The notes under the pieces are model-generated. The model worked only from the letters and a program-made list of their open reading frames with translations, was not told the origin of the DNA and made no database searches. From contig JAYWGM010000101.1 in the NCBI GenBank assembly GCA_043778225.1, forward strand, positions 74,760 through 138,759: DNA of 64,000 nucleotides, in the 5' to 3' direction. Shown here piece by piece: positions 1 to 64,000 of this stretch. Position numbers and translations under genes: made by a program. Position 1 is the first letter of the stretch, and each line of letters opens with the position of its first letter. The DNA is from Deinococcales bacterium. GTDB lineage: Bacteria; Deinococcota; Deinococci; Deinococcales; JAAFIG01.

Positions 1-150
1 AAAATGTATGTCCCTTTACGAGCCTTAAATGGTTTAGCTGGGGTCAGCATTGCGTGGGATGCGACCGCAAAAAGTGTGCTGGTTTCGGTCGAAGGTCTGG
101 TGACACAGATTAAATTAGATTTGGCAAAATTACCAAAAGTTAAACCATAA
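1..150 (+). CDS. 3' end of a copper amine oxidase N-terminal-like (stalk) domain protein, partial
   Basis: Frame 1 reads KMYVPLRALNGLAGVSIAWDATAKSVLVSV...KP* (YVPLR...WD motif); the 5' end lies outside the window. Confidence 0.55.
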   Translation, partial: KMYVPLRALNGLAGVSIAWDATAKSVLVSVEGLVTQIKLDLAKLPKVKP

Positions 151-180
151 ACCTCGAGTCCAAATCATTGATTTTTGTAG

Positions 181-201
181 GGGTGATGCTTGTCATCACC
201 C
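181..201 (+). terminator. Hairpin, probable terminator
   Basis: GGGTGATG-cttgt-CATCACCC perfect 8-bp stem 30 nt after the stop codon. Confidence 0.5.
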
Positions 202-416
202 TGCTTTCAGCGACAGAAATTATTTATGCAAAAGGTCTAATCTCGAGTCATTCAGCTAAAATTCAGCTTTGGTTTAAGTTAAGTTGCACCCACCAAGTTT
301 AGAGTGGTTCTCGAGGATATTCAGGGCTTTGGCGCTGGCTTGACTTCGGGAGCGTTTTTTAACTCGAGTTAGGATTTTTTTCTTGGCTCGAGTCAAAAAA
401 CGGGTAAAGGTGCAAC

Positions 417-1028
417 ATGAAAACTTCAGAACAACGTATTTCGACCACTTTATTAAAAAGCCGCTATATTGTTTTGTTAGCGGTTGGCACGTTGTATTTG
501 CTGTCCATGACTTTATTCGGTTATGCGACCATTAAAACGGCGGTGATGTTGCCGGGTTTGCTGGCAAAATTTACCTCGAGCAGTTCTAAATCTTTAATGC
601 TTTTTGCGGTCGAAACCGCTGATTTATTTTTGGTGGCGGTGGTTTTATTTGTGACTGCCGCAGGGTTGTATGCGCTTTTTATGGGTAGACAAGCCAAAGC
701 CGGCGATGCGGCGGTCACCCGTTGGCTCGAGGTCGAAACACTGGACGACTTAAAACAAAACTTGATTGGCGTGGTTGTGGTGGCAATGGCGGTGCTGTTT
801 TTAGGGGTTTTTATCCGCGATGACCCAGACCATAATTTACTCGAGATTGGCGGTGGAGTTGGGGCGGTGATTGCGGCTTTGGGTTGGTATGTCTCACAAA
901 AATCCAGAGCCAAGGAATCGGATGCCAAGGTCAGCGAAATTAAAGTCAGCGAGACCAAAGTTAGCCAAGAAGAAAGCCAAGCGGCGGCAGAAACACTGGT
1001 TAAATTCAGCGAATCGCTGAAACCATAA
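417..1028 (+). CDS. YqhA/UPF0114-family membrane protein
   Basis: Four hydrophobic segments; DLFL...GLY.LF and WLEV.TLDDLK..L motifs; KVSE-repeat tail. Confidence 0.75.
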   Translation: MKTSEQRISTTLLKSRYIVLLAVGTLYLLSMTLFGYATIKTAVMLPGLLAKFTSSSSKSLMLFAVETADLFLVAVVLFVTAAGLYALFMGRQAKAGDAAVTRWLEVETLDDLKQNLIGVVVVAMAVLFLGVFIRDDPDHNLLEIGGGVGAVIAALGWYVSQKSRAKESDAKVSEIKVSETKVSQEESQAAAETLVKFSESLKP

Positions 1029-1094
1029 AAATGTAAAGACTTGCTTATATTTCAAAGAAGTGTAGAGTACGACTATGAACTTTATCGGAAATTT

Positions 1095-1457
1095 GTGAGT
1101 CAATACCGCGTTCTGGTGATTGACGATGAACCAAGAATGCGTAGCCTGATGCAGCGTGGGCTTGGTTTGGCTGGATTTCAGGTACAGACGGCTGACAATG
1201 GTGAGCTAGGTTTATTGGCAGTGACCCAAAACCCGCCAGATGTAGTGCTGCTCGACCTGATGATGCCGGGGGTATTCGATGGATTTGCGACCCTCGAGCA
1301 ACTCTTAAAACTCGAGCCACGCCCAAAAGTAATTGTTGTCTCGGGCAGAGACGAACTCGAGGACAGACAAAGGGCAAAGGTGGCGGATGGTTTTTTGGTC
1401 AAACCTGTGGCATTTGATTTTTTGGTGGAAACGATTCATAAAGTTATTCGGGCGTAA
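1095..1457 (+). CDS. Single-domain response regulator (receiver only)
   Basis: VLVIDD, LLDLMMP, SG and KP receiver motifs; GTG start uncertain. Confidence 0.85.
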   Translation: MSQYRVLVIDDEPRMRSLMQRGLGLAGFQVQTADNGELGLLAVTQNPPDVVLLDLMMPGVFDGFATLEQLLKLEPRPKVIVVSGRDELEDRQRAKVADGFLVKPVAFDFLVETIHKVIRA

Positions 1458-1468
1458 GAAGGAGTACC

Positions 1469-4400
1469 GTGATAAAGCCCAAACCAAAAGAATTACCTGT
1501 CGTGGTTGGCATCGGCGCTTCGGCTGGCGGTCTCGAGGCATTCTCGAAACTCTTAAAGGCGCTTAAACCAGACACGGGCATGGCTTTTGTTTTGCTGCAA
1601 CACCTCGAGCGCAGTCACGATAGCTTGCTGAGCGAATTATTGGCACGCACCACCAGCATGAAGGTTATCGAAATTATAGATGGCATCAGCCTTTTCGCCA
1701 ATTGTGTTTATGTCATTCCACCCAATGTTAGCGTGGTCATGAAGCGCGGTGTTTTACGGCTTTTGCCGCGTCCTGCGGGGCGAGAATTACACCAGCCCAT
1801 CAATGAATTTTTTAGTTCGCTGTCTCAGGCACGGCTGCATCAGGCAATTGGTGTGGTCTTGTCCGGCACAGCTTCGGATGGCACAGTTGGCTTAGAAGCG
1901 ATTAAAGCCGCCGGCGGAATCACTTTTGCCCAGCGTCCAGAGTCGGCACGTTCGCCAGCCATGCCGCGCAGTGCCATCAAAGCTGGTGTGGTGGATTTTG
2001 TGCTGTCGCCCGAAGAGATTGCCGCCAAGTTGGTCAGTTTAGCCCAAGACCCATACTTAGGAAAAGCCAACAAGCGTCAGGCTCGAGCCAAACCAAGTGC
2101 GGCAGCCAGCAGCGATGATGGCTTTGAAGCGATTTTACATTTACTCCAAGATGCCAAAGACGTGGATTTTTCTTTGTACCGCTCAACCACAATTGGGCGG
2201 CGAATAAGGCGGCGGATGCTGCTCGATTCGATGACTTCAACCACACGCTATATCGAACATCTACGCAGTCAGCCAGCCGCGCTCGAGTTGCTGTATCAAG
2301 ATTTGCTGATTGGTGTGACCAGTTTTTTTCGTGATGCCCATGTTTTTGAATGCCTACAAAAAACAGTTTTCCCCGAACTGCTTAAAGACCGTGCCGCCGA
2401 TGATGTGCTGCGAATCTGGGTCAGTGGTTGCTCGACCGGACAAGAAGCCTATTCTTTGGGGATGGCGTACTTGGAATGTATGGCACTTGCCAAAGTCAAT
2501 ATCCCACTGCAAATTTTTGCCACCGACTTAAACGCCCCAATGCTCGAGAAAGCCCGTGCGGGTTGGTACTCGGCTGCCAGCATGGAGAATGTTTCGCCCG
2601 AGCGCCGCAAACGTTTTTTTAGCGAAGAAAAAGATGGTTGGCGCATCAGCGAAGCGGTGCGTGAAAAAATAATCTTTTCAAAACAAAATGTTTTTGCCGA
2701 CCCGCCTTTTTCGCGTATGGACTTGGTTACTTGCCGAAATTTACTGATTTACCTCGAGCCAGCCCTGCAAAGCCGTGTCATTCCAACCCTGCACTATGCC
2801 TTAAAACCGCAGGGTGTCTTGCTGCTTGGCGCTTCGGAAACGGTTGGGCGCTTTGAGGATTTATTTGGCGTGCTTGACCAGTCTTGCCGGTTTTATAGTA
2901 AGCGCTTGGTCAGCAGCCGAATTCCAAAACTCGAGGGGCGAATTGTCAAATCGGTGGTCAGTAAACAAGAACCCACCGCCTCGGTGGTCAGTGCCAGTAC
3001 AGTACAAACAGGGCGCGAGGTAGACCATTTGCTGCTTTTGCGCTATGCCCCAAGCAGTGTCGTGGTCAACGATGCGCTCGAGGTGGTGCAGTTTCGTGGC
3101 TCGACCAGTCAATTTTTAGAAGCCCCGAGCGGTAAAGCCACTTTTAATTTGCTCAAGATGGCACGTGAAGGCTTAATGTTGCCATTGCGGCGTTTGACCG
3201 ACCAAGCCCGCCAAGAAAATCGGGTCGTGCGCCTCGAGCATCTGCGCTATTCGTACAACGGTGCAGTGGTTGCGATCAATCTCGAGGTTCAGCCCTTAAA
3301 ACAACCCGGTTGTCTGTTGGTGCTGTTCGAGGTCTTGCCAGAATTACCAGCCGCCCAGCCGACTGCCGAGCCACAAACCCAGACCCGCCAACTCGAGGAC
3401 TTGAACCGCGAATTATTAGAGTCCCGCGAATATGTGCGCTTTATCCAGCGCCAAAACGAAGACGAAAACGAACAGTTCCAAGCTGCCAATGCCGAAATGC
3501 AATCCTCGGGCGAAGAATTACAAAGCCTCAACGAAGAACTCGAGACCGCCAAAGAAGAACTCGAGTCCACCAACGAAGAAATCCAAACCTTAAACCAAGA
3601 ACTGACGGTGCGGAACGCCGAATTGTTGCGCTTAAATACGGTCTTGACCAATTTCCAAAGCAGTGCCGAATTGGCAATTGTGGCGGTCAGCTTGGACTTA
3701 GAAGTGCAACGTTTTACCCCACAAGCCGAACGTACTTTGGGTTTACGCAACACTGACCTTGGGCAGCCGATTGGTCGGCTGAGCCATTTATTAAATTTAC
3801 CCGATTTAGAAGAACTTGTTTTGACGGTTATTACTCAAGAAAAACCAACCGACTGCGAAGTTCGTGACCGCGATGGGCGCTGGTTTTTATTGCGGATTCG
3901 TCCCTATTACACCCCCGAAAATGATATTGACGGCGCGGTGCTGGTCTTGTTCGAGATGGATGCCCTAAAAAGAGCCGAACTCGAGCGAGAACGGCTACAA
4001 CAACAAACCGAAGTTGTTTTTGAAAGCCTTGCCGATGGCTTACTTGCCCTCAGTCACGATTGGATGATTACCTATATCAATGCCAACGGCGCACGTTTGG
4101 CGAATCGGTCAAAAGAGACCATGCTGGGTCGTAATTATTGGTCAATTTTTCCAGAAGTGATTGACACCGTTTTTGAGACTGGCTACAGAAAAGCCATGAC
4201 TGAACGGGTGACGGTAGACCTCGAGGCGTATTATCCTGCGCTGGCTGCCCAATTTGAGGTTCGGGCTGTGCCAGTCGAGACTGGAATCACGGTTTTTTTT
4301 CGCGATGTCACCACACGGCACGAAACCGAAATCTTGGTTGCCGAAACCAAAGAAAAACTGCGCGTGCTTGCCGAAAGCCAACAGCGTTTTTTAGCCGATG

Positions 4401-5047
4401 CCGCCCACGAGTTACGCGCTCCGTTGGCGGTCATTCAGGGCAACCTTGAGGTGCTTGAACGCTTCCCCGAGATGCCAGCCCCAGACCGTTTAGAAGCCAT
4501 CAGCGACAGCGCCCGCGAAGCCACACGCCTCGCCCAACTGGCAAATGATTTACTGGCACTGGCTCGAGGTGACGCTGGCGACGGTCTGCGGCTTGAGCCA
4601 CTTGAATTAGCGGCACTGGTTTCAGAAACCCTCCTAGGTGCAACTTATCTGGATATTCAAAACCAACTCGAGTTGGGTACAATCGAGTCGGCTTTGGTTT
4701 TAGGCGATGCCAATAAACTTAAACAACTGGTGCTGATTCTGCTCGATAACGCCATGAAATACTCGCCAGAAGGTGGAAAAGTCAGCCTGAGTTTGCAGCA
4801 CCAAACCAGCCATGCCGAATTAAGAGTCTCGGACAGTGGTCAGGGTATTGACGAAGCAGACCTCGAGCGGGTTTTTGAACGTTTTTACCGCACCGATACC
4901 TCGCGTTCACGCCAGACCGGCGGCACGGGATTAGGTTTACCGATTGCCCGTTGGATTAGCGAGCAGCACCACGCTAAACTCTGGCTCGAGAGTCAGGTTG
5001 GCGTTGGCACAACTGCCGTGTTGCGTTTACCGCTCATGCCAGAATAA
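1469..5047 (+). CDS. CheB methylesterase-CheR methyltransferase-coiled coil-PAS-histidine kinase fusion
   Basis: GIGASAGG and LSGTASDG (CheB); VTSFFRD, GCSTGQEAYS, CRNLLIY (CheR); EELQSLNEELET coil; PAS domains; AAHELRAPL, LLDNAMKY, GGTGLGL (kinase). Confidence 0.92.
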   Translation: MIKPKPKELPVVVGIGASAGGLEAFSKLLKALKPDTGMAFVLLQHLERSHDSLLSELLARTTSMKVIEIIDGISLFANCVYVIPPNVSVVMKRGVLRLLPRPAGRELHQPINEFFSSLSQARLHQAIGVVLSGTASDGTVGLEAIKAAGGITFAQRPESARSPAMPRSAIKAGVVDFVLSPEEIAAKLVSLAQDPYLGKANKRQARAKPSAAASSDDGFEAILHLLQDAKDVDFSLYRSTTIGRRIRRRMLLDSMTSTTRYIEHLRSQPAALELLYQDLLIGVTSFFRDAHVFECLQKTVFPELLKDRAADDVLRIWVSGCSTGQEAYSLGMAYLECMALAKVNIPLQIFATDLNAPMLEKARAGWYSAASMENVSPERRKRFFSEEKDGWRISEAVREKIIFSKQNVFADPPFSRMDLVTCRNLLIYLEPALQSRVIPTLHYALKPQGVLLLGASETVGRFEDLFGVLDQSCRFYSKRLVSSRIPKLEGRIVKSVVSKQEPTASVVSASTVQTGREVDHLLLLRYAPSSVVVNDALEVVQFRGSTSQFLEAPSGKATFNLLKMAREGLMLPLRRLTDQARQENRVVRLEHLRYSYNGAVVAINLEVQPLKQPGCLLVLFEVLPELPAAQPTAEPQTQTRQLEDLNRELLESREYVRFIQRQNEDENEQFQAANAEMQSSGEELQSLNEELETAKEELESTNEEIQTLNQELTVRNAELLRLNTVLTNFQSSAELAIVAVSLDLEVQRFTPQAERTLGLRNTDLGQPIGRLSHLLNLPDLEELVLTVITQEKPTDCEVRDRDGRWFLLRIRPYYTPENDIDGAVLVLFEMDALKRAELERERLQQQTEVVFESLADGLLALSHDWMITYINANGARLANRSKETMLGRNYWSIFPEVIDTVFETGYRKAMTERVTVDLEAYYPALAAQFEVRAVPVETGITVFFRDVTTRHETEILVAETKEKLRVLAESQQRFLADAAHELRAPLAVIQGNLEVLERFPEMPAPDRLEAISDSAREATRLAQLANDLLALARGDAGDGLRLEPLELAALVSETLLGATYLDIQNQLELGTIESALVLGDANKLKQLVLILLDNAMKYSPEGGKVSLSLQHQTSHAELRVSDSGQGIDEADLERVFERFYRTDTSRSRQTGGTGLGLPIARWISEQHHAKLWLESQVGVGTTAVLRLPLMPE

Positions 5048-8105: not shown

Positions 8106-8172
8106 GCGCTGGCTGAGTTTGGCTGCCTCTAGCGCTGGCTGAGTTTGGCTGCCCTCTAGCGCTGGCTGAGTT
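8106..8172. repeat. Tandem repeat, 26/27-bp unit, ~2.5 copies
   Basis: GCGCTGGCTGAGTTTGGCTGCC(C)TCTA repeated; includes the stop codon of the minus-strand hydrolase. Confidence 0.9.
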
Positions 8173-21156: not shown

Positions 21157-22509
21157 ATGAAGAATTTGCGGTTATTGGCAGCATTTGGCATCGGTGCGCT
21201 GGCGGTTGGGGCAATGTTTGCTTCGGCGCAGACAGGTCGTACCAAGGTCACTTGGTTTGTGGGTGTAGGAACGGGTGGTCAACCCGACCAAATCGAAGCC
21301 GAAAAAGCGGCGGTGGCTCGTTATAACAAAGCCCAAGACAAAATCGAAATCAACCTCGAGATTGTCGAATACAACTCGGCTCGAGATAACCTCTCGGCGC
21401 GGATTGCCGCTGGCAACGCCCCAGACATTGTTGGACCAGTCGGTACACAAGGCGCAAACTGGTTCAAAGGACAATTTGTTGACCTCGACCCTTATGTCGC
21501 TAAATTTAAGCCAGACCTCAAAGGCATTGATGAAGGGCTGCTTAAATTCTACAAGGAATCACAGGGCGGCGAAGGTCTGCCTTACGCAGTTTACCCAAGT
21601 TTCTTCTTTTACAACAAAGCCCTCTTTAAGGAATCAAAACTGCCAGACTTGCCAACCAAAGTTGGCGAAAAATACCGTGGTCGCACTTGGGATTGGAATG
21701 CCGTTCGTCAGCTAGGGATGGAACTGACTTTTGACAGCAAAGGCAACAGCGCTGTTTCAAAAGACTTTGATTCTAAAAGCATCGAGACTTACGGCTTTGT
21801 CAACCAATGGAACTTAGGTATTACCTCGATGGGAACCGCCTTTAAGCCAGCCAATGTCTTCCAGAACGGCAAAGCTGTAATCGATCCAGAATGGGTCAAT
21901 GCGATTCGCTACTACCACAACGCCATCTGGAAAGATAAATTCATGCCAAGCCAAGCTGCCATGGACACCGATTTACTCGGACGCGGCAATGCCTTTAACT
22001 CTGGTAACGTCGCCATGGCTTGGACACACCTCTGGTACACCTGCTGCTTAGACCCAGCTGGAACAGGCAAAGTCAAAGATTGGGGCGTTGGTGTGATGCC
22101 AAGCTACAAAGGCAAGACCATCGCTAAACTCCATGCCGATACCTTCCGCATCATGAAAGGCAGCAAAGTTAAAGAAGAAGCCTTCCAAGCAATGTGGTGG
22201 ATTATGAACCAAAAAGACCTCTTGGTGACTTATGGTGCTTTCCCAGCCAACGAGAATCTCCAAGACGATTACATCGCCGCCGTCAACAAAAAGTATGCCC
22301 CTGTTAAAATCAACTGGAATGTTGTTAAAGATATGCTCAAGTACACCGACACCCCAAGCCACGAACAGTATTACCCTAACTTCACTAAAGTGGACGACAT
22401 CTTTGCAAAACTTGCCACCAAAGTGCTGACCCAACCGACCTTAAATATCTCCAAAGAAGTCTCGGATACGCAAAAAGAAATCCAACGCGCTTTTGACGAA
22501 AAGAAATAA
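21157..22509 (+). CDS. Carbohydrate ABC transporter substrate-binding protein
   Basis: Signal peptide; AAGNAPDIV, FFYNKALF, FNSGNVAM; GGAGAGG ribosome-binding site; operon context. Confidence 0.9.
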   Translation: MKNLRLLAAFGIGALAVGAMFASAQTGRTKVTWFVGVGTGGQPDQIEAEKAAVARYNKAQDKIEINLEIVEYNSARDNLSARIAAGNAPDIVGPVGTQGANWFKGQFVDLDPYVAKFKPDLKGIDEGLLKFYKESQGGEGLPYAVYPSFFFYNKALFKESKLPDLPTKVGEKYRGRTWDWNAVRQLGMELTFDSKGNSAVSKDFDSKSIETYGFVNQWNLGITSMGTAFKPANVFQNGKAVIDPEWVNAIRYYHNAIWKDKFMPSQAAMDTDLLGRGNAFNSGNVAMAWTHLWYTCCLDPAGTGKVKDWGVGVMPSYKGKTIAKLHADTFRIMKGSKVKEEAFQAMWWIMNQKDLLVTYGAFPANENLQDDYIAAVNKKYAPVKINWNVVKDMLKYTDTPSHEQYYPNFTKVDDIFAKLATKVLTQPTLNISKEVSDTQKEIQRAFDEKK

Positions 22510-22536
22510 CCTTCTCGCGCCTTTCTTCCTCCTCCG

Positions 22537-22562
22537 CCTCCGCGCTTTTAAGAGCGCGGAGG
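22537..22562 (+). terminator. Intra-operon stem-loop after the binding-protein gene (mRNA stabiliser or leaky terminator)
   Basis: CCTCCGCGCT...AGCGCGGAGG 10-bp stem. Confidence 0.6.
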
Positions 22563-22587
22563 TCAATTCAAAAAATAGGACACCTGT

Positions 22588-23517
22588 ATGCTACTCAGTC
22601 AAAAAACAAAAAAACCTATCGGTATTGAACGCACTGACCAGCGTTGGGGTTGGCTTTTCTTAACACCTTGGCTGCTTGGCTTGCTGCTTTTTACAGCATT
22701 TCCAATGCTGTTTTCTTTATTTTTAGCCTTTACCAATTATAATCTAGTGCCAGACGAACCAACCCGCTTTGTCGGCTTCAAAAACTGGGTGGTGATGGTT
22801 CAAGACCCACAAATGCAGAGTGCCTTTTTGAACACCCTCAAATATATTGCCATTGTTGTGCCACTTTTAATCGTCAGCCCCTTGGTTTTAGCCTTGTTTT
22901 TGAATGCCAAACCACTTTGGCTTAAAGGTTTATTTATCACTCTATTTTTTCTACCCAACCTCATTCCGGGCGTGGTCACTGGTTTAATTTGGGCGGGTTC
23001 ACTTTCACCAGATGGCACAGTCAATCGTTTCCTCAAAGGCTTTGGAATTACCCCGCCAGCTTGGTTGACCGAAGCGGCTTGGGTCATGCCAGCCATTGCA
23101 ATTATTGGCTTATGGAGCATTGGTAACACCATTTTACAACTGATTGCCGCCTTAAAAAATGCCCCCAAAGAACTCTTTGAAGCCGCCACCATAGACGGGG
23201 CAAGTTCACTGACGATGTTTTTTAGAATCACCATTCCACTGATGTCCTCGGTGCTGTTTTTTAATGTGATTACCGCCATTATTGGTGGCTTTCAGTATTT
23301 TGTGGTCAGTTTTTTACTTTTTAATGGTCAGGGCGGTCCAAATGACGCGGGTATGTTTTTAATGCTGAAAATTTTTAAGGAAGCGATTACTTACCGCAAC
23401 ATGGGCTATGCCTCGGCAATGTCTTGGGCAATGCTGCTGATTACTTTGTTGATTACCCAAGTGCTGTTTGCCATGGGTAAACGGTTTGTCTATTACGCTG
23501 GAGAGGAGCAAAAATGA
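22588..23517 (+). CDS. Carbohydrate ABC permease (MalF-like)
   Basis: FEAATIDGA EAA loop; MGYASAMSW. Confidence 0.92.
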   Translation: MLLSQKTKKPIGIERTDQRWGWLFLTPWLLGLLLFTAFPMLFSLFLAFTNYNLVPDEPTRFVGFKNWVVMVQDPQMQSAFLNTLKYIAIVVPLLIVSPLVLALFLNAKPLWLKGLFITLFFLPNLIPGVVTGLIWAGSLSPDGTVNRFLKGFGITPPAWLTEAAWVMPAIAIIGLWSIGNTILQLIAALKNAPKELFEAATIDGASSLTMFFRITIPLMSSVLFFNVITAIIGGFQYFVVSFLLFNGQGGPNDAGMFLMLKIFKEAITYRNMGYASAMSWAMLLITLLITQVLFAMGKRFVYYAGEEQK

Positions 23518-24593
23518 GTCTGGTTTTACCAAAAGTAAGTGTCCAAAGTGTTCAACGTGAAAATCAAAGGGCTTGGCGCTCGAGAATCGCGTCTTTGTTG
23601 ATTACGATTTTGATTGCTTGGGTGGCATGGGTTTTTTTAACGCCTTTTTATGAACAAATCAATGCCAGTTTTGGCGCACCATCTCGAGAACCCGGACAAC
23701 CCTTTGGTCCTTATGTCGGTCAAGTTTTTAAGTACCAAGACCAAGACCTAAAAATCTATAAAGTGCCAATCAATGGGGCTGTACAGCAATTGGCGTTGCT
23801 CGAGCCGGGGCGCAGTAGCAGTGTTTTTATTGACCCAAAAGACCCAAGTGTTCCCATTACTTACGAAGGTTCATACCGTGCTTTAGAACGTTTGTGGACA
23901 TTCAGTCCGCGTTTTGCCAATTATGCCGAAGCCTGGGATAAATTACCCGGTGGGTTCTTTCGGGGTTTAAGCAACACCTTTATTATTGCTGGTTTAAGCA
24001 CCTTGGGGGTTTTAATCAGCAGCACTTTTACGGCTTATGGGCTGGCTCGTTTCAATATGCCACACAAAGATTTCTTGCTCGGCTTGGTGACTTTAACACT
24101 GATGCTACCAACGGTCGTTTTATTTGTGCCACAGTATATTCTCTACTTTAAGATCGGCTGGGTTGGCACATGGCTACCGCTCATCGTACCATCGTTTTTT
24201 GGTAATGCTTACAGTATTTTTTTGCTGCGTCAGTTCTTCTTAGCCATTCCCAAAGAATTTGACGAAGCCGCCAAAGTGGACGGGGCAAACCCGTTGCAAA
24301 TACTTTGGTTTATCTTGCTACCGCTTATTCGCCCTGCTTTAATTGCAGTCGCTATTCTTAACTTTATTCTTGTCTGGAACGATTTTTTCTATCCAACGCT
24401 GTACTTGGCTGGAAAAACCGACCTGATGCCTTTATCGGTCTTAATTCGGATGTTTAGCTCGAGTTACGGCAGCAGCACCCCACATCTGATTTCGGCAGCC
24501 GCAATCATTGCCACGATTGTACCGATGGTCTTATTTTTAGTCGCTCAACGCCCTTTTATTCGTGCCATCACGATGCCGGGGTTGGACAAATGA
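23514..24593 (+). CDS. Carbohydrate ABC permease (MalG-like)
   Basis: IFLLRQFF..IP.E.DEAAKVDGA; WNDFF. Confidence 0.92.
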   Translation: MSLVLPKVSVQSVQRENQRAWRSRIASLLITILIAWVAWVFLTPFYEQINASFGAPSREPGQPFGPYVGQVFKYQDQDLKIYKVPINGAVQQLALLEPGRSSSVFIDPKDPSVPITYEGSYRALERLWTFSPRFANYAEAWDKLPGGFFRGLSNTFIIAGLSTLGVLISSTFTAYGLARFNMPHKDFLLGLVTLTLMLPTVVLFVPQYILYFKIGWVGTWLPLIVPSFFGNAYSIFLLRQFFLAIPKEFDEAAKVDGANPLQILWFILLPLIRPALIAVAILNFILVWNDFFYPTLYLAGKTDLMPLSVLIRMFSSSYGSSTPHLISAAAIIATIVPMVLFLVAQRPFIRAITMPGLDK

Positions 24594-25609: not shown

Positions 25610-25619
25610 GGAAAAACAC

Positions 25620-34177: not shown

Positions 34178-35068
34178 ATGTCCGAACTTCCGACTCCCAA
34201 AGTCATTTCCCGACCCAATACAGCCCGTTTACTGATTAGCTGCCCCGATAAACGCGGTATTGTGGCGGCGGTATCGCAGTTTTTATTTAATCACAATGCC
34301 AACATCATCTCTTCAGACCAGCACAGCATTGACCCCGAAGGTGGGCGTTTTTTTATGCGCCAAGAATTTTCTTTAGAAGGACTAGACCTGACCAGAACGC
34401 AATTTGAACGGGCTTTTCAAGAAGTCGTGGCTACACCTTTTGGTATGGAATGGAGTTTATCCTATGCCACCGAACCCAAACGCATGGCGATTTTATGCAG
34501 CAAATACGATCATTGCCTCATGGATTTACTCTGGCGGGTGCGGCGCGGCGAATTTGACTGTGAAATCACGATGGTGATTAGCAACCACACCGACCTCGAG
34601 CCGGATGTGACCGCCTTTGAAATTCCGTACCATTTGGTCGAGTCGCAAAAAGGCACGGACAAAGCCAAGTCTGAAGCCGAAATCCTCGAGTTGTTGCACA
34701 ACCAAGCCGATTTTGTGGTGCTGGCACGCTATATGCAGATTTTATCGGGCGATTTTTTAGAAAAGTTAGCCGTACCCGTGATTAACATCCACCATAGTTT
34801 TTTGCCAGCTTTTATTGGTGCAAATCCCTATAAAAGCGCCGCCCAACGTGGTGTTAAAATTATTGGTGCAACCGCCCATTATGTGACCGCCGAACTCGAC
34901 GGTGGTCCAATTATCGAGCAAGATGTCTCGAGGGTGACACACCGCGATGATGTCAAAGCCATGACCCGAGTCGGACGCGACATCGAACGGGCGGTGCTGG
35001 CTCGAGCCGTCAAAGCCCATCTCGAGGACAGGGTTTTGGTCTATCAGAATAAAACTGTGGTGTTTTAA
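34178..35068 (+). CDS. purU: Formyltetrahydrofolate deformylase
   Basis: [41 protein letters not shown]. Confidence 0.95.
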
Positions 35069-35668: not shown

Positions 35669-35677
35669 AGATTACTT

Positions 35678-35730: not shown

Positions 35731-36759
35731 ATGAAGGCTATGAGCAACAAATTACATTTGCTTTTGCTCGAGTGGTACGACACCCATGCTCGAGTCTTGC
35801 CGTGGCGACAAACCAAAGCTGGTTCTCGAGAACCTTACCAAGTTTGGCTTTCAGAAATTTTATTACAACAGACCCAAGTTTCTCGAGCCAGCAGTTATTA
35901 CGAGTCTTTTCTCGAGGCTTTTCCGACCCTGCAAGACCTTGCGGCTGCGCCACTCGATACTGTCCTAAAACTCTGGGAGGGGGCTGGATACTATGCCCGC
36001 GCCAGAAGCCTGCACCGCGCCGCGCAAATCATGGCAGAAAGTGGCACACCGAGTGCTTATCTGGCTTGGCTCGAATTGCCAGGCGTTGGGCGCTATACGG
36101 CTGCTGCAATTGCCAGTTTAAGCACCAACCAAGCCGTGGCGGCGGTGGATGGCAATGTCCGCCGAGTATTGGCACGGCTCGAGAACAACGCTAACCCGTC
36201 TGAAGATTGGCTCTGGGCAACCGCCACAAGCTATCTTGAAAAAGACCGTGCTGGCGCATGGAACGAAGCCCTGATTGAACTTGGGGCAACGATTTGTAAA
36301 CCAAAAAAACCGCTTTGTCTCGAATGTCCAATTGCAAAACACTGTTTGGCTTTTCGTGCCAATACCATGCTGTCTGTGCCAGCCCCCAAAGCTCGAGCCA
36401 AAGTCAAACTGGTCAAGGCGGTGGCTTTATTGCTGCATTTTGGGGGCGAAGTCTACCTCGAGTTACGACCAAAAAACGGTTTGCTGGGTGGCTTATACGG
36501 TGTACCACTCGAGTCAATCAGCACCACCCTCGAGGCTGCGCTCGAGTTGCTACTCAAGCGCTACACACCCTTACACTCCTTGGGTGGGTGGTGCGGGGAG
36601 GTATCGCACACCATGACCCACCGCCAGTTTGAAATTTCGGTCTTTGCGCTCGAGTCTAAACGCCCCGATTTAGTGCGACCGACAACTCGAGCCATCGCTA
36701 ACCTCGACCGTAAAATTCTTAAACTGCTCGAGTCTGGCTTACCCGTCACCTCTTCTTGA
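35731..36759 (+). CDS. mutY: A/G-specific adenine glycosylase
   Basis: WLSEILLQQTQV, WEGAGYYARAR, LPGVGRYTA, VDGNVRRV, C-X6-C-X2-C-X5-C Fe-S motif. Confidence 0.93.
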   Translation: MKAMSNKLHLLLLEWYDTHARVLPWRQTKAGSREPYQVWLSEILLQQTQVSRASSYYESFLEAFPTLQDLAAAPLDTVLKLWEGAGYYARARSLHRAAQIMAESGTPSAYLAWLELPGVGRYTAAAIASLSTNQAVAAVDGNVRRVLARLENNANPSEDWLWATATSYLEKDRAGAWNEALIELGATICKPKKPLCLECPIAKHCLAFRANTMLSVPAPKARAKVKLVKAVALLLHFGGEVYLELRPKNGLLGGLYGVPLESISTTLEAALELLLKRYTPLHSLGGWCGEVSHTMTHRQFEISVFALESKRPDLVRPTTRAIANLDRKILKLLESGLPVTSS

Positions 36760-37592: not shown

Positions 37593-37626
37593 GTTTAGGT
37601 GTACAGTATAACTCGAGGAGAAAATA

Positions 37627-38754: not shown

Positions 38755-38758
38755 GTGC

Positions 38759-38856: not shown

Positions 38857-38888
38857 ATTATTCTGAGTCCAGCGTGTAGACTGGTTGC

Positions 38889-40031: not shown

Positions 40032-40032
40032 C

Positions 40033-40806
40033 TCAATAGGTAAAATGCTTAATTTGCTCACCACGAGCGCCAATCTCGGTCATGGCTTCAATCCCAATAT
40101 CCAAATGCACATCTACCCATTTCTTGGTGACTTCTCTGTCCGAAGCATCGGTCTTGACTCCATCTGGAGTAATCGGCACATCCGAAACCAGCAACAGCGC
40201 CCCTCGAGCAATTTCGTTGTGATGCCCGACAATAAAAATCGTGGCGGTTTCCATATCGATGCCAATACAGGTTAAGCGTTTGAGCCGCTCGAGAAAATCC
40301 AAATCGTGTTCCCAAACCCGCCGATTGGTGGTGTAAATCACGCCCGTGCGGTACTCGAGGTTTCGCTCCACAATTTTATCCGAGACAAATTTATGGAGCT
40401 TAAAACTTGGTAAAGCGGGGACTTCAGGCGGAAAATAATCGTTAGAAGTGCCTTCACCACGAATGGCAGCGATTGGCAAAATAAAATTCCCCAGTTCGGT
40501 ACTGCTTTTTAAGCCGCCGCATTTGCCTAAAAACAATACGCCTTTGGGCATCCGCGCCGATAGTAAATCCATGACCGTCGCCGCATTGGCACTGCCGATG
40601 CCGAAATTGACCATCGTCAAACCAGCGCTGTTGGTACAGGCTTGCATCGCTTTACCTTCACCGTAAACATCCGCTCCAAAGCGATTAGCAAAACGCGCAA
40701 CATAGTCGTCAAAATTAGTCAGCAAAATATAATCACCGAACATATCCACGGGCATTCCGGTATAACGCGGCAACCAGTTTTGGGTAATCTCGAGTTTTGA
40801 TTTCAT
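40033..40806 (-). CDS. amn: AMP nucleosidase (short type)
   Basis: NWLPRYTG, NFGIGSANAA, FLGKCGG, AIRGEGTS.DY, IDMETAT. Confidence 0.88.
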   Translation of the reverse strand: MKSKLEITQNWLPRYTGMPVDMFGDYILLTNFDDYVARFANRFGADVYGEGKAMQACTNSAGLTMVNFGIGSANAATVMDLLSARMPKGVLFLGKCGGLKSSTELGNFILPIAAIRGEGTSNDYFPPEVPALPSFKLHKFVSDKIVERNLEYRTGVIYTTNRRVWEHDLDFLERLKRLTCIGIDMETATIFIVGHHNEIARGALLLVSDVPITPDGVKTDASDREVTKKWVDVHLDIGIEAMTEIGARGEQIKHFTY

Positions 40807-40813
40807 ACACGCA

Positions 40814-40898
40814 TCATACTCGAGTCGCAGAGGCACGTCATACTCGAGACCTCAGAGGCACGTCATACTCGAGCAACCAGAGGCACGTCATACTCGAG
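40814..40898. repeat. Four copies of TCATACTCGAG with a 24-25 bp period in a divergent promoter region
   Basis: CAGAGGCACGTCATACTCGAG units separated by 3-4 variable nt. Confidence 0.9.
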
Positions 40899-40939
40899 CA
40901 ACTAGAATCATTGACACTCGAGCGGTTAGAATACACGCC

Positions 40940-41455
40940 ATGAACAAGAATGTAATTGGAATTATGGTCGGCGTGGTTGTTCTGGCATTAGGCGCTTTAT
41001 ATGTCTACGTCAGCTTTGGCTCTGGAACGCAAAACTCTGGCAGCCCCCCATCTATTGTAAGCCCAGAAGCACCTGCTAGTGCGATGTGTGCTGCCCAACC
41101 AGCCGCCAACACCAGCCTAAAAGACGCGGATGTAACCGAACTCAAAAAAGAAGATGTCAAAGTCGGCACTGGCGCAGAAGCAGTCGCAGGAAAAACCGTG
41201 GTGGTGAATTACATCGGGCGATTGGTTGATGGTAAGCAGTTTGATGCTTCTTGCGACCGCAGCCCCTTTGATTTTCCGCTCGGGGCTGGCGGCGTGATTC
41301 AGGGCTGGGACCAAGGCGTGGCGGGAATGAAAGTTGGCGGGCAACGCCGTTTGATTATTCCCTCGAGCCTAGGCTACGGCGCAGCAGGGGCGGGTTCAGA
41401 TATTCCACCCAATGCGGCTTTGATTTTTGATGTTGAACTGCTCGAGGTACGCTGA
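40940..41455 (+). CDS. FKBP-type peptidyl-prolyl isomerase with N-terminal membrane anchor
   Basis: VNY.G.L.DGK.FD.S, VIQGWDQG, LGYG, IPPNA.LIFDVELL. Confidence 0.93.
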   Translation: MNKNVIGIMVGVVVLALGALYVYVSFGSGTQNSGSPPSIVSPEAPASAMCAAQPAANTSLKDADVTELKKEDVKVGTGAEAVAGKTVVVNYIGRLVDGKQFDASCDRSPFDFPLGAGGVIQGWDQGVAGMKVGGQRRLIIPSSLGYGAAGAGSDIPPNAALIFDVELLEVR

Positions 41456-41546
41456 ACTCATCCTGCTCGAGGTACGCTGAACTCATCCTGCTCGAGGTAC
41501 GCTGAACTCATCCTGCTCGAGGTACGCTGAACTCATCCTGCTCGAG
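41438..41546. repeat. Perfect 25-bp tandem repeat, 4 copies plus a partial copy
   Basis: CTGCTCGAGGTACGCTGAACTCATC; the unit includes the FKBP stop codon. Confidence 0.95.
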
Positions 41547-41645
41547 ATTTTGCTATAACCTTTGTACCTTTTAACCTTTTGCCCTCTGTTGTCTGCCTAA
41601 CCGTTTTTGTGTCAAGAGTGTTGCACAATAAGACTCGAGGTTTCT

Positions 41646-42302
41646 ATGCGTGAAAGAATGTTTAATTTAACCACCCCCGAAGAAGTCAATTTATTTATCT
41701 CCGAGAATCCAGCCTGTGCGATTTTCAAAGCTGGAACGTGCCACAAAACCATGCAGGGTTGGGGCAATATCGAATCGTACCTTAGTCAGCGCCCAGATGT
41801 GCCAGTCGGCATCATTCGGGTGGTCGAGGCTCGTCCTGCCAGCAATCATGTGGCGGATTTAACGGGCATTGTGCATCAGAGTCCGCAGATTATTTTGTTC
41901 CGCGACCAAGAAGCCAAATTTGACTTGGACAACTGGAACATCACCAAAGAAAACCTCGAGCCAAACCTCGAGAAATTCTTACCGGCTTTGGAGGGCGAAG
42001 TGGTGGCAGAAGGTAAGCGCACCAGTTTAGACCCGTACAAGAACTTAATGGATAAGTATTTAAGTGGTGCGGTTTCCGAAAGTCAATTTCAATGGACTTA
42101 CTTAGAAATGTTTCGCAACGATGCCAATTTGCGCTCCCAAGACGAATTTACACTTTTGGACAGCCTATTTGGCAACCCAGACGAGCATCACATTCACGCT
42201 GGGGCAATTGTGCAACTCGAGATGGCGAATCAAAGCACTGGTGCAGTTGCGCCTCTGCTCGAGCGGGTTGGGATGTTGCGCCAGCAGATGAACGCACTGT
42301 AA
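41646..42302 (+). CDS. Monothiol bacilliredoxin BrxC/YtxJ with C-terminal helical domain (AbxC-like)
   Basis: FKAGTCHKT, RPASNHVA..TGIVHQSPQ; tail Y..L.DKYL.G..SE..F...YL..F. Confidence 0.8.
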   Translation: MRERMFNLTTPEEVNLFISENPACAIFKAGTCHKTMQGWGNIESYLSQRPDVPVGIIRVVEARPASNHVADLTGIVHQSPQIILFRDQEAKFDLDNWNITKENLEPNLEKFLPALEGEVVAEGKRTSLDPYKNLMDKYLSGAVSESQFQWTYLEMFRNDANLRSQDEFTLLDSLFGNPDEHHIHAGAIVQLEMANQSTGAVAPLLERVGMLRQQMNAL

Positions 42303-42429
42303 TCAAAAAGCCCCACCCCTACGACAAAGACTATGCTAAAGGCTCAAGAAGGCTTTCCGAGCCGATTGGCTCGAGGCAATGTGTCTCGAGCTTCATCTTT
42401 TTTTTGGTGTTTCGGGGCATACTATAGAA

Positions 42430-43710
42430 ATGCTAAAACGCTTTTTGATTCTGCTGTGTTTTCTGACCTCGAGCCTCGCTGCTGCCCAAACAGTCCAGTG
42501 GACAACCGTAGACCCCAAATTTGCCGCCCTCCCCAATGCCAAGGCTTTTTTTGGCACTCGAGCTGGTGTTTTTGGTGGGCAGTACGCCTACCGTATCGAA
42601 ATGCCAGACACGTGGAATGGCGACTTGGTGATGTACGCCCACGGTTTTAAGGGGCTTGGTCCAGAATTAAACGCCGACATCATTCCAATTCGGGCTTGGT
42701 TTATTCAAAACGGTTACGCTTGGGCAAGCTCGAGTTATAGTGCCAATGGCTGGGCAGTCCGTCAGGGCGCAGACGACACCAAAGACCTCGCCGAGTTTGT
42801 GAGTAGCAGTATCGCCAAGCCAAAACGCACCTTTATTCTTGGGGCTTCGATGGGTGGCAACGTCATTACCGATAGCCTTGGCAATTTTCCAACCCTCTAT
42901 GCTGGCGCAATGCCGATTTGTGGCGCTTTGACCGGTCTCGAGCTATTCGATTACTTTTTATCTTATGCCTTGGTCGGCGAGTACGTCTCGGGGATTAACC
43001 TTGTGCCTAGCACCTTAGACCCCGTTTCGTTTTACATTCAAAAATACTTTGGTGGTTTGCTGCCAACCCTTGGACAACCCAAGGCATACACCGCCAAAGG
43101 CTTACAATTTGACAGCATTATTAAAAACTTGTCAGGCGGCGAACGCCCCTATAGGCTCGAGGGAATGCTTGCCGAAACCGCGCCAAACATCAATTTTTAC
43201 AGCGCGTGGTTTAGTGGCGGTGGGCTTGGGGTGATTAACCACAACACCGATAAACAAGTCACCAGCAACATCGGACTCGAGTACCGCATAGACCCAAATC
43301 TGGGCTTAGACAGTGCTACCCTGAACCGTGGCATCAAGCGTATCGAAGCCAACCCAGATGTGCGAATTACCGAAGGGCGTTATTGGTATGGCATCCCGAG
43401 CGGCAGAATCCTTGTGCCAGTCATGAGTTACCACACCTCAGGCGATGCTTTTGTGCCGGTCAATATGGAAATTTCGTACCGTAAAAAAGTCGAGGCTCGA
43501 GGGCGCGGCGATTTATTGGTGCAGCGTTTGGTACGCCGTCCGAATCATTGCCAATTTAGCGAAGCCGAACTGATTGAAGGTTTTTCTGATTTGGTGGCAT
43601 GGGTCAATACGGGCAAAAAACCACGCGGCGACGATTTATTGGGCGACATCAGCAATGCCGGTCTCGAGTGGACAAAACCGCTTTTGGAAAGCGACCCCGC
43701 TAAAAAATAA
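42430..43710 (+). CDS. Secreted alpha/beta hydrolase
   Basis: Signal peptide; WNGDLVMYAHG, GASMGG, D..VP, HC.F. Confidence 0.7.
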   Translation: MLKRFLILLCFLTSSLAAAQTVQWTTVDPKFAALPNAKAFFGTRAGVFGGQYAYRIEMPDTWNGDLVMYAHGFKGLGPELNADIIPIRAWFIQNGYAWASSSYSANGWAVRQGADDTKDLAEFVSSSIAKPKRTFILGASMGGNVITDSLGNFPTLYAGAMPICGALTGLELFDYFLSYALVGEYVSGINLVPSTLDPVSFYIQKYFGGLLPTLGQPKAYTAKGLQFDSIIKNLSGGERPYRLEGMLAETAPNINFYSAWFSGGGLGVINHNTDKQVTSNIGLEYRIDPNLGLDSATLNRGIKRIEANPDVRITEGRYWYGIPSGRILVPVMSYHTSGDAFVPVNMEISYRKKVEARGRGDLLVQRLVRRPNHCQFSEAELIEGFSDLVAWVNTGKKPRGDDLLGDISNAGLEWTKPLLESDPAKK

Positions 43711-43749
43711 TCTGTACTCGTGAGGTCATGACTGGGCTATACTCGAGCC

Positions 43750-44040
43750 ATGATCACTGCGATTGTTTTGGTTCGTGCCACTCGAGACAAAATCCCCGAA
43801 ACTGCCGAGCGATTGGCGGCGCTGCCGCACGTTGCCGAGTGCTACAGCATTACGGGCGATTGGGACATTGCCTGTATTTTGCGCTTTCCTCATTTTGAGG
43901 ATTTAGACGAGATCGTGACCCAAGAACTGCGTGGCATTGCTGGCATCGAACGCACCCAAACGATGTTGGCGTTTAAGGCATACTCCAAGGATTTACTCGA
44001 CCAGGGTTTTGGGATTGGTATGGACGAAAGCGGCGTATAA
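43750..44040 (+). CDS. Stand-alone Lrp/AsnC ligand-binding domain protein
   Basis: V.E.YSITGDWDI, LRGIAGIERTQT. Confidence 0.85.
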   Translation: MITAIVLVRATRDKIPETAERLAALPHVAECYSITGDWDIACILRFPHFEDLDEIVTQELRGIAGIERTQTMLAFKAYSKDLLDQGFGIGMDESGV

Positions 44041-58955: not shown

Positions 58956-59006
58956 GCTTTTTAGGTCTAGCCACCAATCGCTTTTTAGGTCTAGCCACCA
59001 ATCGCT
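58956..59006. repeat. 24-bp tandem duplication between convergent stop codons
   Basis: GCTTTTTAGGTCTAGCCACCAATC x2; includes the moaA stop. Confidence 0.9.
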
Positions 59007-62897: not shown

Positions 62898-62985
62898 CTC
62901 GAGAATATCAGAGGTGCGAAGCCACAAAGTACGCCAGTGCCAGTTTAGCAAGGGTTCTCGAGGTGGTAAGGGTTTTACAAGATAG
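62898..62985 (+). repeat. TA-array delimiter repeat, copy R4
   Basis: CTCGAGAATATCAGAGG...GCCAGTGCCAGTTTAGCAAGGGTTCTCGAGGTGG...ACAAGATAG. Confidence 0.9.
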
Positions 62986-63041
62986 GGCGAAATGATTTTT
63001 AAGAAGCGCTAAAGAACATTTGTTTTGTGCTATACTGTTCG

Positions 63042-63180
63042 TATCGCGGTCGAACCCAGAGTTGCTGCAAGGCAGAACACTTCGACGCTCGCCCCCCGCC
63101 TTTATTGGTGGTCGGGTTTCTAGCCAGGACTGGAATACAAAAAGAAGCAGGGGGAAAAGCAGCCTTTTGGGTTGCTTTTT
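63042..63180 (+). ncRNA. Candidate structured small RNA convergent with the 182-aa gene
   Basis: Extended -10 TGcTATACT (63028-63036); nested stems GTCGAA/TTCGAC, CTGC/GCAG, CCGCC/GGTGG; terminator AAAAGCAGCC/GGTTGCTTTT. Confidence 0.6.
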
Positions 63181-63182
63181 CG

Positions 63183-63731
63183 TTAATACCTTTTGTGAAT
63201 GCGTTTACCTTGATTGGTTGCGTGAAGCAGCTTGAAAAAACCAAAATGGTTGGTGCGGTCTAATTTAGGGCGTTCGTTGCTGTTGGGGTCACGTTCATAG
63301 GCACTTTTGATGATGAGTACAGTCTGTCGTTTGACTTTCACCATATCAAAAAAGATGTCATATTCAACTTTTTGATTCTGCACATCCAGCAACTCGAGGC
63401 GAAAGTACGCACCATCTGGTAGGACATAGAATCGTTTGTTGCTCTCGTCAAATGCTCGGATTAAGTCAGGCAGCAATTTGGAAAGTTCCCATCGTTTTTG
63501 GTTAAAGTACCTATTTTTGATGCCTTCTCGAGAATGGGTTTTGCTGTAGATTGGCATGTTATCTTCGTTGCTTGAATCGGTGAATGTGTGGTCAGTAAAT
63601 GTCACCAAGACCAAGAAGTGTTTTGCAGTAGCGGTTGCTATGGCGATTTGCACAAAAGTATGTTCAAAATCATCCAAATGCGAGAGGTTAAAAACTTGAC
63701 TTTTGTGGGCGTAGGGTGTCCACCTTGTCAT
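63183..63731 (-). CDS. Hypothetical protein, possible RNase-type toxin
   Basis: 182 aa; NLSHL, V.F.DHTFT, R.F...RWELSK.LP, Y.IFF and L.IKSAY motifs; TA-island context. Confidence 0.6.
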   Translation of the reverse strand: MTRWTPYAHKSQVFNLSHLDDFEHTFVQIAIATATAKHFLVLVTFTDHTFTDSSNEDNMPIYSKTHSREGIKNRYFNQKRWELSKLLPDLIRAFDESNKRFYVLPDGAYFRLELLDVQNQKVEYDIFFDMVKVKRQTVLIIKSAYERDPNSNERPKLDRTNHFGFFKLLHATNQGKRIHKRY

Positions 63732-63752
63732 TCATTTCACGCTACTCATAAA

Positions 63753-63806
63753 GCCAGTATAGCCAAAAATGAGGTGGCAAGAGTGCTACAAAATGCTTCA
63801 AAGTAA
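63753..63806 (+). repeat. TA-array delimiter repeat, degenerate copy R5
   Basis: GCCAGTATAGC...GAGGTGGCAAGAGTGCTACAAAATGC...AAGTAA; CTCGAG lost. Confidence 0.65.
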
Positions 63807-64000
63807 GGAATATATGTACGGTATGGAAAAGACAAATTGTTTTTCAACGTATAACATAGCGAATGCTGCCTTAGTTTCTGTAAACTGTAGTATGAAAGTT
63901 GCCTTAGAGCGTGTTTATAAAGTGTCAAAACGTCTCAAAATCAACTGAATATTCGCCAAATAAGCCCAAGATTCGGTTGTACTCGGTAAACCCTCAAAGT

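Follow-up and report, generated by a model that had tools for sequence, protein, structure and literature searches.

The palindrome CTCGAG is a real, family-wide and hyper-iterated word in a group of Deinococcales genomes, and its abundance reflects a directional bias that acts at the level of DNA. The analysis concerns a stretch of 64,000 nucleotides, called the window here (C101:74760-138759), from a Deinococcales assembly designated G000, which comprises 4,029,277 bases in 107 contigs with a guanine plus cytosine (GC) content of 48.7%. To our knowledge, the family of G000 has no cultured member. The motif, identical on both strands, extends over the whole window (1..64000), in which 399 sites (6.2/kb) were found, against a mean of 7.86 (standard deviation 2.81, largest value 17) in 100 dinucleotide-preserving shuffles. 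Counts per 2-kb bin range from 3 (22001-24000) to 19. The genome as a whole holds 24,877 copies, equal to 6.17/kb or about one in every 160 bases. A first-pass annotation of the window had already described CTCGAG as highly iterated, with several hundred copies by eye. Its hand counts (8 in 1-1000, 9 in 36170-36735 and 6 in 40785-40925) are exact, and its random expectation of about 14 per window agrees with the figure of 0.23/kb from base composition.

Among all hexamers of the G000 genome, CTCGAG ranks first, the next ten ranks being occupied mostly by words that overlap it, and the most frequent hexamer without such an overlap reaches 5,347 copies. Each flanking position carries at most 0.064 bit, which indicates that the word is exactly the hexamer. 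GAGCTC, the mirror word built from the same codons, occurs at only 24 sites. The excess extends over the rest of the genome and is present in further sequence data: window positions 24001-44000 are reproduced by contigs of two public runs from one study, one of which may be the source of the assembly, and 18 further assemblies of the family show similar density. Because these assemblies and the run contigs agree, the excess is not an assembly artefact.

The enrichment goes well beyond composition and codon usage. In G000, the ratio of observed to expected CTCGAG is 26.7, 47.5 and 15.1 under Markov models of order 0, 1 and 2, falling to 3.6 at order 3 and 1.16 at order 4. This drop is circular, because models of orders 3 and 4 already hold the sub-words of CTCGAG: G follows 89% of CTCGA pentamers, and 68% of all TCGA tetramers sit within the hexamer. 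For the same reason, the loss of the signal after high-order Markov or di-codon correction, which the first-pass annotation had named as decisive, is an unfair yardstick, since such models contain the word itself. The other corrections that it had proposed leave the excess standing, at orders 0 to 2 and in both codon shuffles. These used 3,531 genes defined by a simple longest open reading frame (ORF) rule rather than by a trained gene finder. Shuffling synonymous codons within genes left 2,379 ± 50 sites against 22,402 real ORF sites (a 9.4-fold excess), and shuffling codon order left 1,031 ± 35 (22-fold), each in five replicates.

Moreover, coding and non-coding DNA carry the word at almost equal density (6.18/kb and 6.11/kb), and non-coding DNA alone gives observed/expected ratios of 32 (order 0) and 40 (order 1). 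All three reading frames are used, with 13,224 sites as CTC-GAG, 4,667 as xxC-TCG-AGx and 4,511 as xCT-CGA-Gxx in G000 ORFs; 69% of the synonymous opportunities are taken in the CTC-GAG frame, and 42% and 56% in the other two. The earlier statement that the site occurs in intergenic DNA and in all frames and is no codon-pair bias thus holds. Of 19,151 Leu-Glu dipeptides, 69.1% are written CTC-GAG, compared with 6.9% expected from codon usage. An origin of the excess in base composition, codon usage, Leu-Glu-rich proteins or faulty assembly is therefore practically excluded by the non-coding excess, the two shuffles, the scarcity of GAGCTC and the agreement of 19 independent assemblies and the contigs of two runs, and this explanation was rejected. 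It could draw on the favoured codons CTC and GAG of high-GC relatives, which explain part of the count there, on a Thermus-like genus in which CTCGAG and GAGCTC reach similar counts, and on the order-4 ratio, whose circularity was noted above.

The size of the bias was estimated from equilibrium counts of CTCGAG and of its 18 one-letter neighbours. For the whole genome, the 24,877 sites compare with 13,793 neighbour loci, giving a gain/loss ratio of about 32 if equilibrium is assumed; for non-coding DNA, 2,531 sites and 1,490 neighbour loci give 30.6. Because the two ratios agree, the force acts on DNA and is independent of translation. A directional, DNA-level bias toward CTCGAG, with gain exceeding loss about 30-fold, almost certainly exists. 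Nine neighbour classes are not depleted: transitions stand at observed/expected ratios of about 1.2-1.6, and some transversions at 0.15-0.6. Counts of the transition neighbours are near equal (2,696, 2,051 and 2,762), with CTTGAG and TTCGAG both at 1.4, which suggests that neither cytosine of the word is a hypermutable 5-methylcytosine. Every Leu-Glu codon pair is drained, even those two steps away from CTCGAG, and the force is therefore not repair of a single mismatch type. Gain and loss rates at strain level have no statistical power with the available relatives: genomes of the same genus are 65-88% identical over 24001-44000, with broken synteny, and those of genus g5 are 79-93% identical. 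A metagenome scan with ArgH returned no relative, and one with RpoB returned a single family-like locus (L217).

The bias is strong enough to alter protein sequences. In the G000 proteome, Leu-Glu has an observed/expected ratio of 2.32 and ranks first among 400 dipeptides, compared with 0.96 for the reversed Glu-Leu and 1.58 for Ser-Ser. Across ORFs in the neighbourhood of rpoB, the Leu-Glu excess follows CTCGAG density, from 1.80 in the G000 family, 1.71 in a second hyper-rich lineage described below and 1.35 in Meiothermus/Calidithermus to 1.09 in Deinococcus-like genomes, 1.08 in Trueperaceae and 0.96 in Thermus. RpoC carries 21-28 Leu-Glu in the family and 13-23 in outgroups. Several alignment columns of RpoB and RpoC read Leu-Glu, encoded by CTCGAG, in most family members, and Ile-Pro, Phe-Asp, Val-Ala or Glu-Glu in 13 outgroups. 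Most of the derived Leu-Glu columns are not shared between the family and the second hyper-rich lineage, for which few sequences are available, and this suggests independent build-up of the motif in the two lineages. Derived and ancient Leu-Glu in RpoB and RpoC do not differ in how often they are written as CTCGAG (95/124, 77%, vs 128/178, 72%; Fisher p = 0.42, with non-independent cells).

The distribution of the word was followed in a census of 364 Deinococcota genomes, expressed per kb of rounded genome size; one row (G330) is unpublished, and no claim is made on it. All 19 genomes of the G000 family lie at 4.3-6.8/kb, confirming the suspicion that related Deinococcota share the excess. The highest values belong to genus g19, in which G154 and G155 reach 8.6 and 7.0/kb, while their congener G156 (2.3 Mb, 5 contigs) has 0.3/kb; G037 of genus g15 stands at 3.6/kb. 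Calidithermus-like genomes (g24) have 3.0-3.4/kb and Meiothermus-like genomes (g13) 1.4-3.5/kb, which in the latter is 2-43 times the count of GAGCTC; individual Meiothermus/Calidithermus loci show 2-3.8/kb and order-1 observed/expected ratios of 5-11. Trueperaceae range from 0.3 to 2.8/kb, many of them at intermediate levels, with CTCGAG more than 100 times as frequent as GAGCTC in some genera. No enrichment was found in this census in Thermus-like genomes (g9; 0.6-1.6/kb, about equal to GAGCTC) or in the 111 Deinococcus-like genomes (g7; 0.01-0.36/kb). Abundance of CTCGAG is thus a trait that varies by degrees among these genomes and peaks separately in at least two lineages. In an RpoB tree of 141 rows, the G000 family forms a single clade of 15 rows (support 100; 3.2-5.4/kb), and the second hyper-rich clade (L078, L220 and L221; 4.4-7.3/kb) adjoins Deinococcus-like rows at 0-0.7/kb.

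Other palindromes present the opposite picture. Roughly half of the six-base palindromes are nearly purged from G000, with 31 of 64 below an observed/expected ratio of 0.06 (31 of 64 below 0.1 in non-coding DNA alone), and CTCGAG is the sole huge exception. AGGCCT, GACGTC and GGGCCC have one site each, and GGCC has 131 sites in 4 Mb. The purge of GGCC is restricted to some family members (rpoB loci L057-L064 have 0-2 copies each, L065-L068 have 47-120), and that of GAGCTC is family-wide, with 0-25 sites in 16 of 19 genomes. In the Thermus-like genus g9, a TaqI-like methyltransferase occurs in 32 of 32 genomes, and TCGA is scarce in the rpoB loci L111, L114 and L125, g9 loci having 11-22 copies per 11-19 kb, against 100-200 in the majority of rpoB loci elsewhere. 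The pattern is that of classical restriction avoidance, beside relatives that enrich CTCGAG.

Within G000, the placement of CTCGAG is close to a Poisson process, i.e., random. The 24,770 gaps have a mean of 160.6 and a median of 117 (111 for an exponential distribution), with a coefficient of variation of 0.998. Departures consist of a 3-bp phasing in genes, a shortage of gaps below 20 bp (933 vs 2,900 expected), a minor peak at a gap of 7 (123) and 11 gaps above 2 kb vs 0.1 expected. A gap of exactly 6 never occurs; such spacing would create GAGCTC. In non-coding DNA, depletion is confined to the 6-10 bp bin (39 vs 74 expected), and pairs spaced 21-25 bp are in excess (105 vs 61 expected), which is compatible with CTCGAG in both arms of hairpins. 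A genome-wide scan revealed no origin-like or promoter-like cluster, the maximum being 10 sites per 300 bp with the top clusters inside ORFs, in an assembly that is 89% complete and from which the origin region could be missing. The concentration at origin or promoters that would mark a Dam/CcrM-like system is accordingly not seen in G000.

Stretches devoid of the motif form a class of their own. Nineteen CTCGAG-free stretches longer than 1.5 kb, 45.5 kb in total and mostly at 31-44% GC, occur in G000, and we infer that they are low-GC imported islands. The longest in the window (21380-23579; annotated as 21386..23578, plus strand) is a 2,199-bp gap at 45.7% GC, covering the gene for an ATP-binding cassette (ABC) solute-binding protein (21157-22509) and a permease gene (22588-23517). 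These solute-binding and first permease genes (21157-23517) belong to an otherwise CTCGAG-rich sugar-transport operon. The stretch is probably a more recently imported or replaced segment.

Enzymes that methylate the same word are known from the phylum. Blow 2016 (PMC4752239, S3 Table) lists active Type II N6-methyladenine (m6A) enzymes of CTCGAG specificity, with no cognate nuclease listed, in three cultured Deinococcota: Marky_0034 (M.Mhy14884I) of Marinithermus hydrothermalis, acting on 94.6% of sites, MeichDRAFT_0814 of Meiothermus chliarophilus DSM 9957 (94.1%), and Mrub_2385 of M. ruber (99.5%). The main text of that paper mentions CTCGAG twice, both times for Nocardia, with a clustering of the sites near dnaA; unmethylated CTCGAG sites of Marinithermus appear in S5 Table, and orphan methyltransferases are described as conserved and tied to regulatory unmethylated sites.

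These enzymes were traced by sequence. A family called A1 was defined by an alignment seeded with the sole mid-sized PF07669 gene (at 818 kb of contig 3) of a Calidithermus chliarophilus genome (L105), which has orthologues of 46-76% identity in three other named Thermaceae genomes. Because the gene position agrees with the locus-tag number, A1 is presumably of the M.Mch9957IV/M.Mru1279II type; a further member, located at 2.44 Mb in a complete genome of 3.1 Mb, would fit Mrub_2385, and the complete genome G025 has a TaqI-like gene, at 34.6 kb, that would fit Marky_0034. At E<1e-190, A1 is present in 16 of the 364 genomes (3/3 of g24, 6/26 of g13, six Trueperaceae and one f4), with one further truncated copy. 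The TaqI-like family is found in 35 of 364 genomes, namely 32/32 of g9, both of g26, and G025.

The first-pass annotation had suggested a search for an enzyme of the XhoI/PaeR7I type. The outcome was negative: the XhoI nuclease family PF04555 occurs in 0 of 19 genomes of the G000 family and in 1 of 31 relatives, and neither the A1 query nor the TaqI-like enzyme of G025 has an orthologue in G000. Vsr (PF03852) is likewise found in 0 of the 19. G000 has about 21 DNA methyltransferase genes, obtained by a catalytic-motif prefilter (57 ORFs) from which the 49 ORFs of at least 250 aa were checked against Pfam. They comprise five C5, three N4/N6, three D12, three HsdM and two type ISP enzymes, and five other enzymes of Eco57I or MmeI type, including one bearing TaqI_C. 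Two TaqI-like or gamma-class genes, L036 and L049, gave structure matches only in their catalytic domains (BseCI, TaqI, BREX PglX), and L049 was rejected as a conserved CTCGAG enzyme, being present in 2 of 31 genomes. CTCGAG density within methyltransferase genes, used as a proxy of residence time, is mostly 3-8 sites/kb and non-discriminating. In the second hyper-rich lineage, G154 (58% complete) shows no match in four methyltransferase families, and the low-density G156 shows no significant match to PF07669, PF01555 or PF00145 and a weak match to PF02086 only.

As to the agent behind the bias, we favour, tentatively and at well under even probability, a molecular drive tied to natural transformation or homologous recombination, of the type now proposed for highly iterated palindrome 1 (HIP1) of cyanobacteria and long argued for DNA uptake sequences. 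Uptake, sparing or recombination would favour CTCGAG-bearing DNA, probably adenine-methylated as it is in the cultured relatives, and alleles with the word would then displace alleles without it. Such a drive would explain the persistence of thousands of individually worthless sites. Since the sites are placed as in a Poisson process and form no clusters, a genome-wide drive fits better than a set of regulatory sites. It is further supported by the 30-fold bias, its reach into proteins, the motif-free low-GC islands, and the presence of the uptake channel gene ComEC (PF03772) in 18 of 19 family genomes. For HIP1, methylation is reported to increase natural transformation of Synechococcus PCC 7002 (10.1101/2024.09.10.611283), and its abundance correlates with uptake machinery (PMC13756078). 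Several points weigh against this drive. Its link to uptake or recombination is one of analogy. ComEC, also found in G155 and G037, is equally present in motif-poor relatives (G156 and Deinococcus-like genomes) and was rejected as a discriminator between hyper-rich and low genomes. Thermus and Deinococcus radiodurans are naturally competent, yet the genera resembling them lack enrichment in the census. The spacing is random rather than extra-even, unlike that reported for HIP1 (Xu 2018) and for uptake sequences; a 6-bp palindrome is also shorter than known uptake sequences and different in kind. Gene content adds to these points. Matches to PF02086, PF01555, PF00145 and PF02384 were clustered (at least 40% identity and 60% coverage) for G000 and five good family genomes, including one single-contig chromosome, with PF07669 matches tabulated and fetched in part; across the four families, no methyltransferase orthologue group occurs in more than three of the six genomes. 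The families to which CTCGAG methylation is tentatively assigned yielded no orthologue in the G000 family and do not track density: by rounded sizes, g13 averages 2.15/kb with A1 (n=6) and 2.15/kb without it (n=20), and g6 has 1.57/kb with A1 and 1.55 and 1.55 without.

The same gene content bears on a methylation-directed repair ratchet, in which a methyltransferase would mark CTCGAG, also on heteroduplex, and mismatch repair would resolve toward the methylated word; sites would then be made and protected without a function of their own. This is unlikely, though it has the active enzymes of Marinithermus and Meiothermus, the intermediate enrichment of Meiothermus/Calidithermus loci, and the roughly 21 methyltransferase genes of G000, including the candidates L036 and L049, on its side; near-equal transition neighbours fit adenine methylation or none, and Elhai 2015 (PMC4390886), where this model is set out, reports for each alternate HIP a co-occurring methyltransferase of matching specificity. 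Within the G000 family, however, A1 has only two weak, non-orthologous matches (G009, 30% identity, and G003, partial), the TaqI-like family is found in 0 of 19 genomes, and no methyltransferase group of the four families clustered spans more than three of the six genomes. In G037 (96% complete), at 3.6/kb, the set is limited to two large fused enzymes and a single C5 enzyme. Conversion proceeds from every neighbour type rather than from one mismatch class, and the model of Elhai predicts saturation at about 1/kb, with all bases near a site, against 6/kb here (PMC4390886). The mechanisms listed in the first-pass annotation (a methylation- or repair-driven ratchet, or a recombination, uptake or chromosome-organisation signal) were too broad a set to be wrong; the methylation ratchet among them is unsupported by the gene content of the family and not refuted by it, as unrelated enzymes could share a specificity. 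Direct selection on each site, for binding of an abundant nucleoid or segregation protein or as a Dam-like mark for repair, replication or regulation, has a similarly low probability. The word is kept across the family and, at lower density, across most of the phylum, the non-coding pair excess is compatible with hairpin stems, and the regulatory unmethylated sites of conserved orphan methyltransferases, the unmethylated Marinithermus sites and the Nocardia clusters near dnaA, cited above, point the same way. Some 25,000 random sites would each hold a minute share of any function, which is hard to maintain against the amino-acid cost; coding and non-coding densities are equal, and no conserved writer enzyme was found among the families searched. 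Rather improbable is the joint proposal that a Deinococcota process without a dedicated methyltransferase (biased gene conversion, repair or uptake) writes CTCGAG and at full strength overrides coding, its strength having been turned up separately in the G000 family and in the g19/g15 lineage beside Deinococcus. Least probable of these mechanisms, and conjectural, is a self-marking defence that spares CTCGAG-dense DNA and attacks DNA without the word. The extreme restriction-type pressure on six-base palindromes and GGCC, the many methyltransferase genes and the imported islands without CTCGAG would suit it, but no candidate reader was identified. Viral contigs with three close sites gave at least 126 stretches, of which 80 loci of at least 4 kb were analysed; most are high in GC, with GAGCTC common too. 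Among the viral matches listed, CTCGAG far exceeds GAGCTC in few (39:0 in L319, 23:0 in L335), and none has host-like density at about 49% GC, L335 being a partial case (2.3/kb, GC 50%).

Several local features of the window were also recorded. The cluster of nine CTCGAG noticed at first pass (36178..36732) lies inside the ORF 35731-36759 and within the Poisson tail of the genome. An intergenic 25-bp tandem array of 3.8 copies (40814..40906) has CTCGAG in its unit and contributes four of the six sites of 40785-40925; a second 25-bp array (41438..41546; 4.4 copies, 100% matches) has the word in each unit. Tandem arrays of the window (8106-8172, 26940-27010, 38759-38856, 40814-40906, 41438-41546 and 58956-59006) are located mostly at gene borders. 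Such arrays are short, with 2-4 copies of units that are unrelated between arrays, and they favour a period of 23-27 bp, which accounts for 198 of 765 Tandem Repeats Finder (TRF) arrays in G000; 119 of the 198 have at least 2.5 copies, and 25 of those 119 hold CTCGAG in the unit. A strain-variant tract of 337 bp (34603..34939) has 27 listed differences, mostly at third codon positions, in the strain of the second run, whose contigs are otherwise identical to the window over most of the 20 kb compared, and it looks like a recombination import. None of its two CTCGAG sites is hit by a difference (0.96 expected, which leaves no statistical power), and a CTCGAG at 34595-34600 sits 3 bp ahead of the first difference. 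Finally, 1469-5047 is a single ORF of 1,192 aa that fuses a CheB methylesterase, a CheR methyltransferase, PAS domains and a histidine kinase.

HIP1 has been without an explanation for three decades. Full-text literature, within a coverage that excludes subscription journals, yielded no report of CTCGAG over-representation in Deinococcota, and the searches turned up no counterpart of HIP1 outside cyanobacteria. A 2026 preprint on hot-spring genomes notes that, in one host-phage group, CTCGAG and TCGA are shared as motifs that carry methylation. New elements of the present analysis are the 364-genome census, the second hyper-rich lineage, the contrast within a genus, the link to published methylomes, the lack of association with methyltransferase content, and the equal bias in non-coding DNA. 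The system differs from HIP1 in word and phylum, is about 6 times denser and spans a gradient from absent to extreme, which makes comparative tests possible. Its gene content suggests that a conserved methyltransferase is not needed, which, if so, would run counter to the main model for HIPs. Direct bench work is open through cultured relatives in which the density is intermediate and the CTCG(m6A)G methylome is known. If the process works without a dedicated methyltransferase, the contrast between G155 (7.0/kb) and G156 (0.3/kb) could reveal the responsible gene, and Meiothermus/Calidithermus would be a second, independent HIP model system. In practice, imported DNA can be recognised in these genomes by its lack of CTCGAG, and the bias in codon and amino-acid usage matters for annotation and phylogenetics of the group.

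Comparison with known systems places CTCGAG among several partial analogues. The XhoI/PaeR7I restriction-modification systems recognise the same word, but restriction depletes its sites; here, the word is enriched, and the XhoI nuclease was found in none of the 19 family genomes. The Deinococcus-like genus looks more like such a restricted state. In E. coli, Dcm/Vsr very-short-patch repair raises CCWGG well under 2-fold. It resembles the present case in that a repair bias toward a methyltransferase site raises the number of sites; it is unlike it in that Vsr was found in none of the 19 family genomes, the deamination neighbours CTTGAG and TTCGAG are not depleted, and the excess is about 30-fold.

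Known DNA uptake sequences have 9-12 bases, are oriented and non-palindromic, and occur at about 1/kb. Those of Neisseria (DNA uptake sequence, DUS) and Pasteurellaceae (uptake signal sequence, USS) share with CTCGAG a genome-wide excess in all frames, a reshaping of peptides, scarcity in foreign DNA, and an abundance that an uptake or recombination drive can explain, and the uptake channel gene is present in the G000 family. In form, CTCGAG departs from them, as a 6-base palindrome with no flank information at 6/kb. Closest in word and phylum are M.Mhy14884I, M.Mch9957IV and M.Mru1279II, candidate orphan enzymes whose hosts have relatives of intermediate density; Blow 2016 (PMC4752239), with its two main-text mentions of the word, reports no over-representation of CTCGAG for these Thermaceae.

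The nearest analogue overall is HIP1 (GCGATCGC), together with the alternate HIPs of cyanobacteria, and the analogy drawn in the first-pass annotation was apt. Differences are plain: CTCGAG belongs to another phylum, has 6 rather than 8 bases, and occurs at 4.3-6.8/kb, compared with a saturation of about 1/kb given for HIP1 by Elhai 2015 (PMC4390886). HIP1 is quasi-periodic according to Xu, Lawrence and Durand 2018 (PMC5861425), while CTCGAG is Poisson-like. Among the methyltransferase families searched, none that could be the cognate enzyme was found throughout the hyper-rich family, and the methylation known from its relatives is on adenine, not cytosine. The likenesses are nevertheless extensive. 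Both are short perfect palindromes in tens-fold excess, within genes and between them, as described for the cyanobacterial words by Elhai 2015 (PMC4390886), and both are clade-wide, scarce in imported DNA, and contained in or equal to a methyltransferase site in some carriers. With an excess of at least 15-fold, an occurrence in every frame and outside genes that codon usage does not account for, and sharing across a clade, CTCGAG shows several features of the HIP class.

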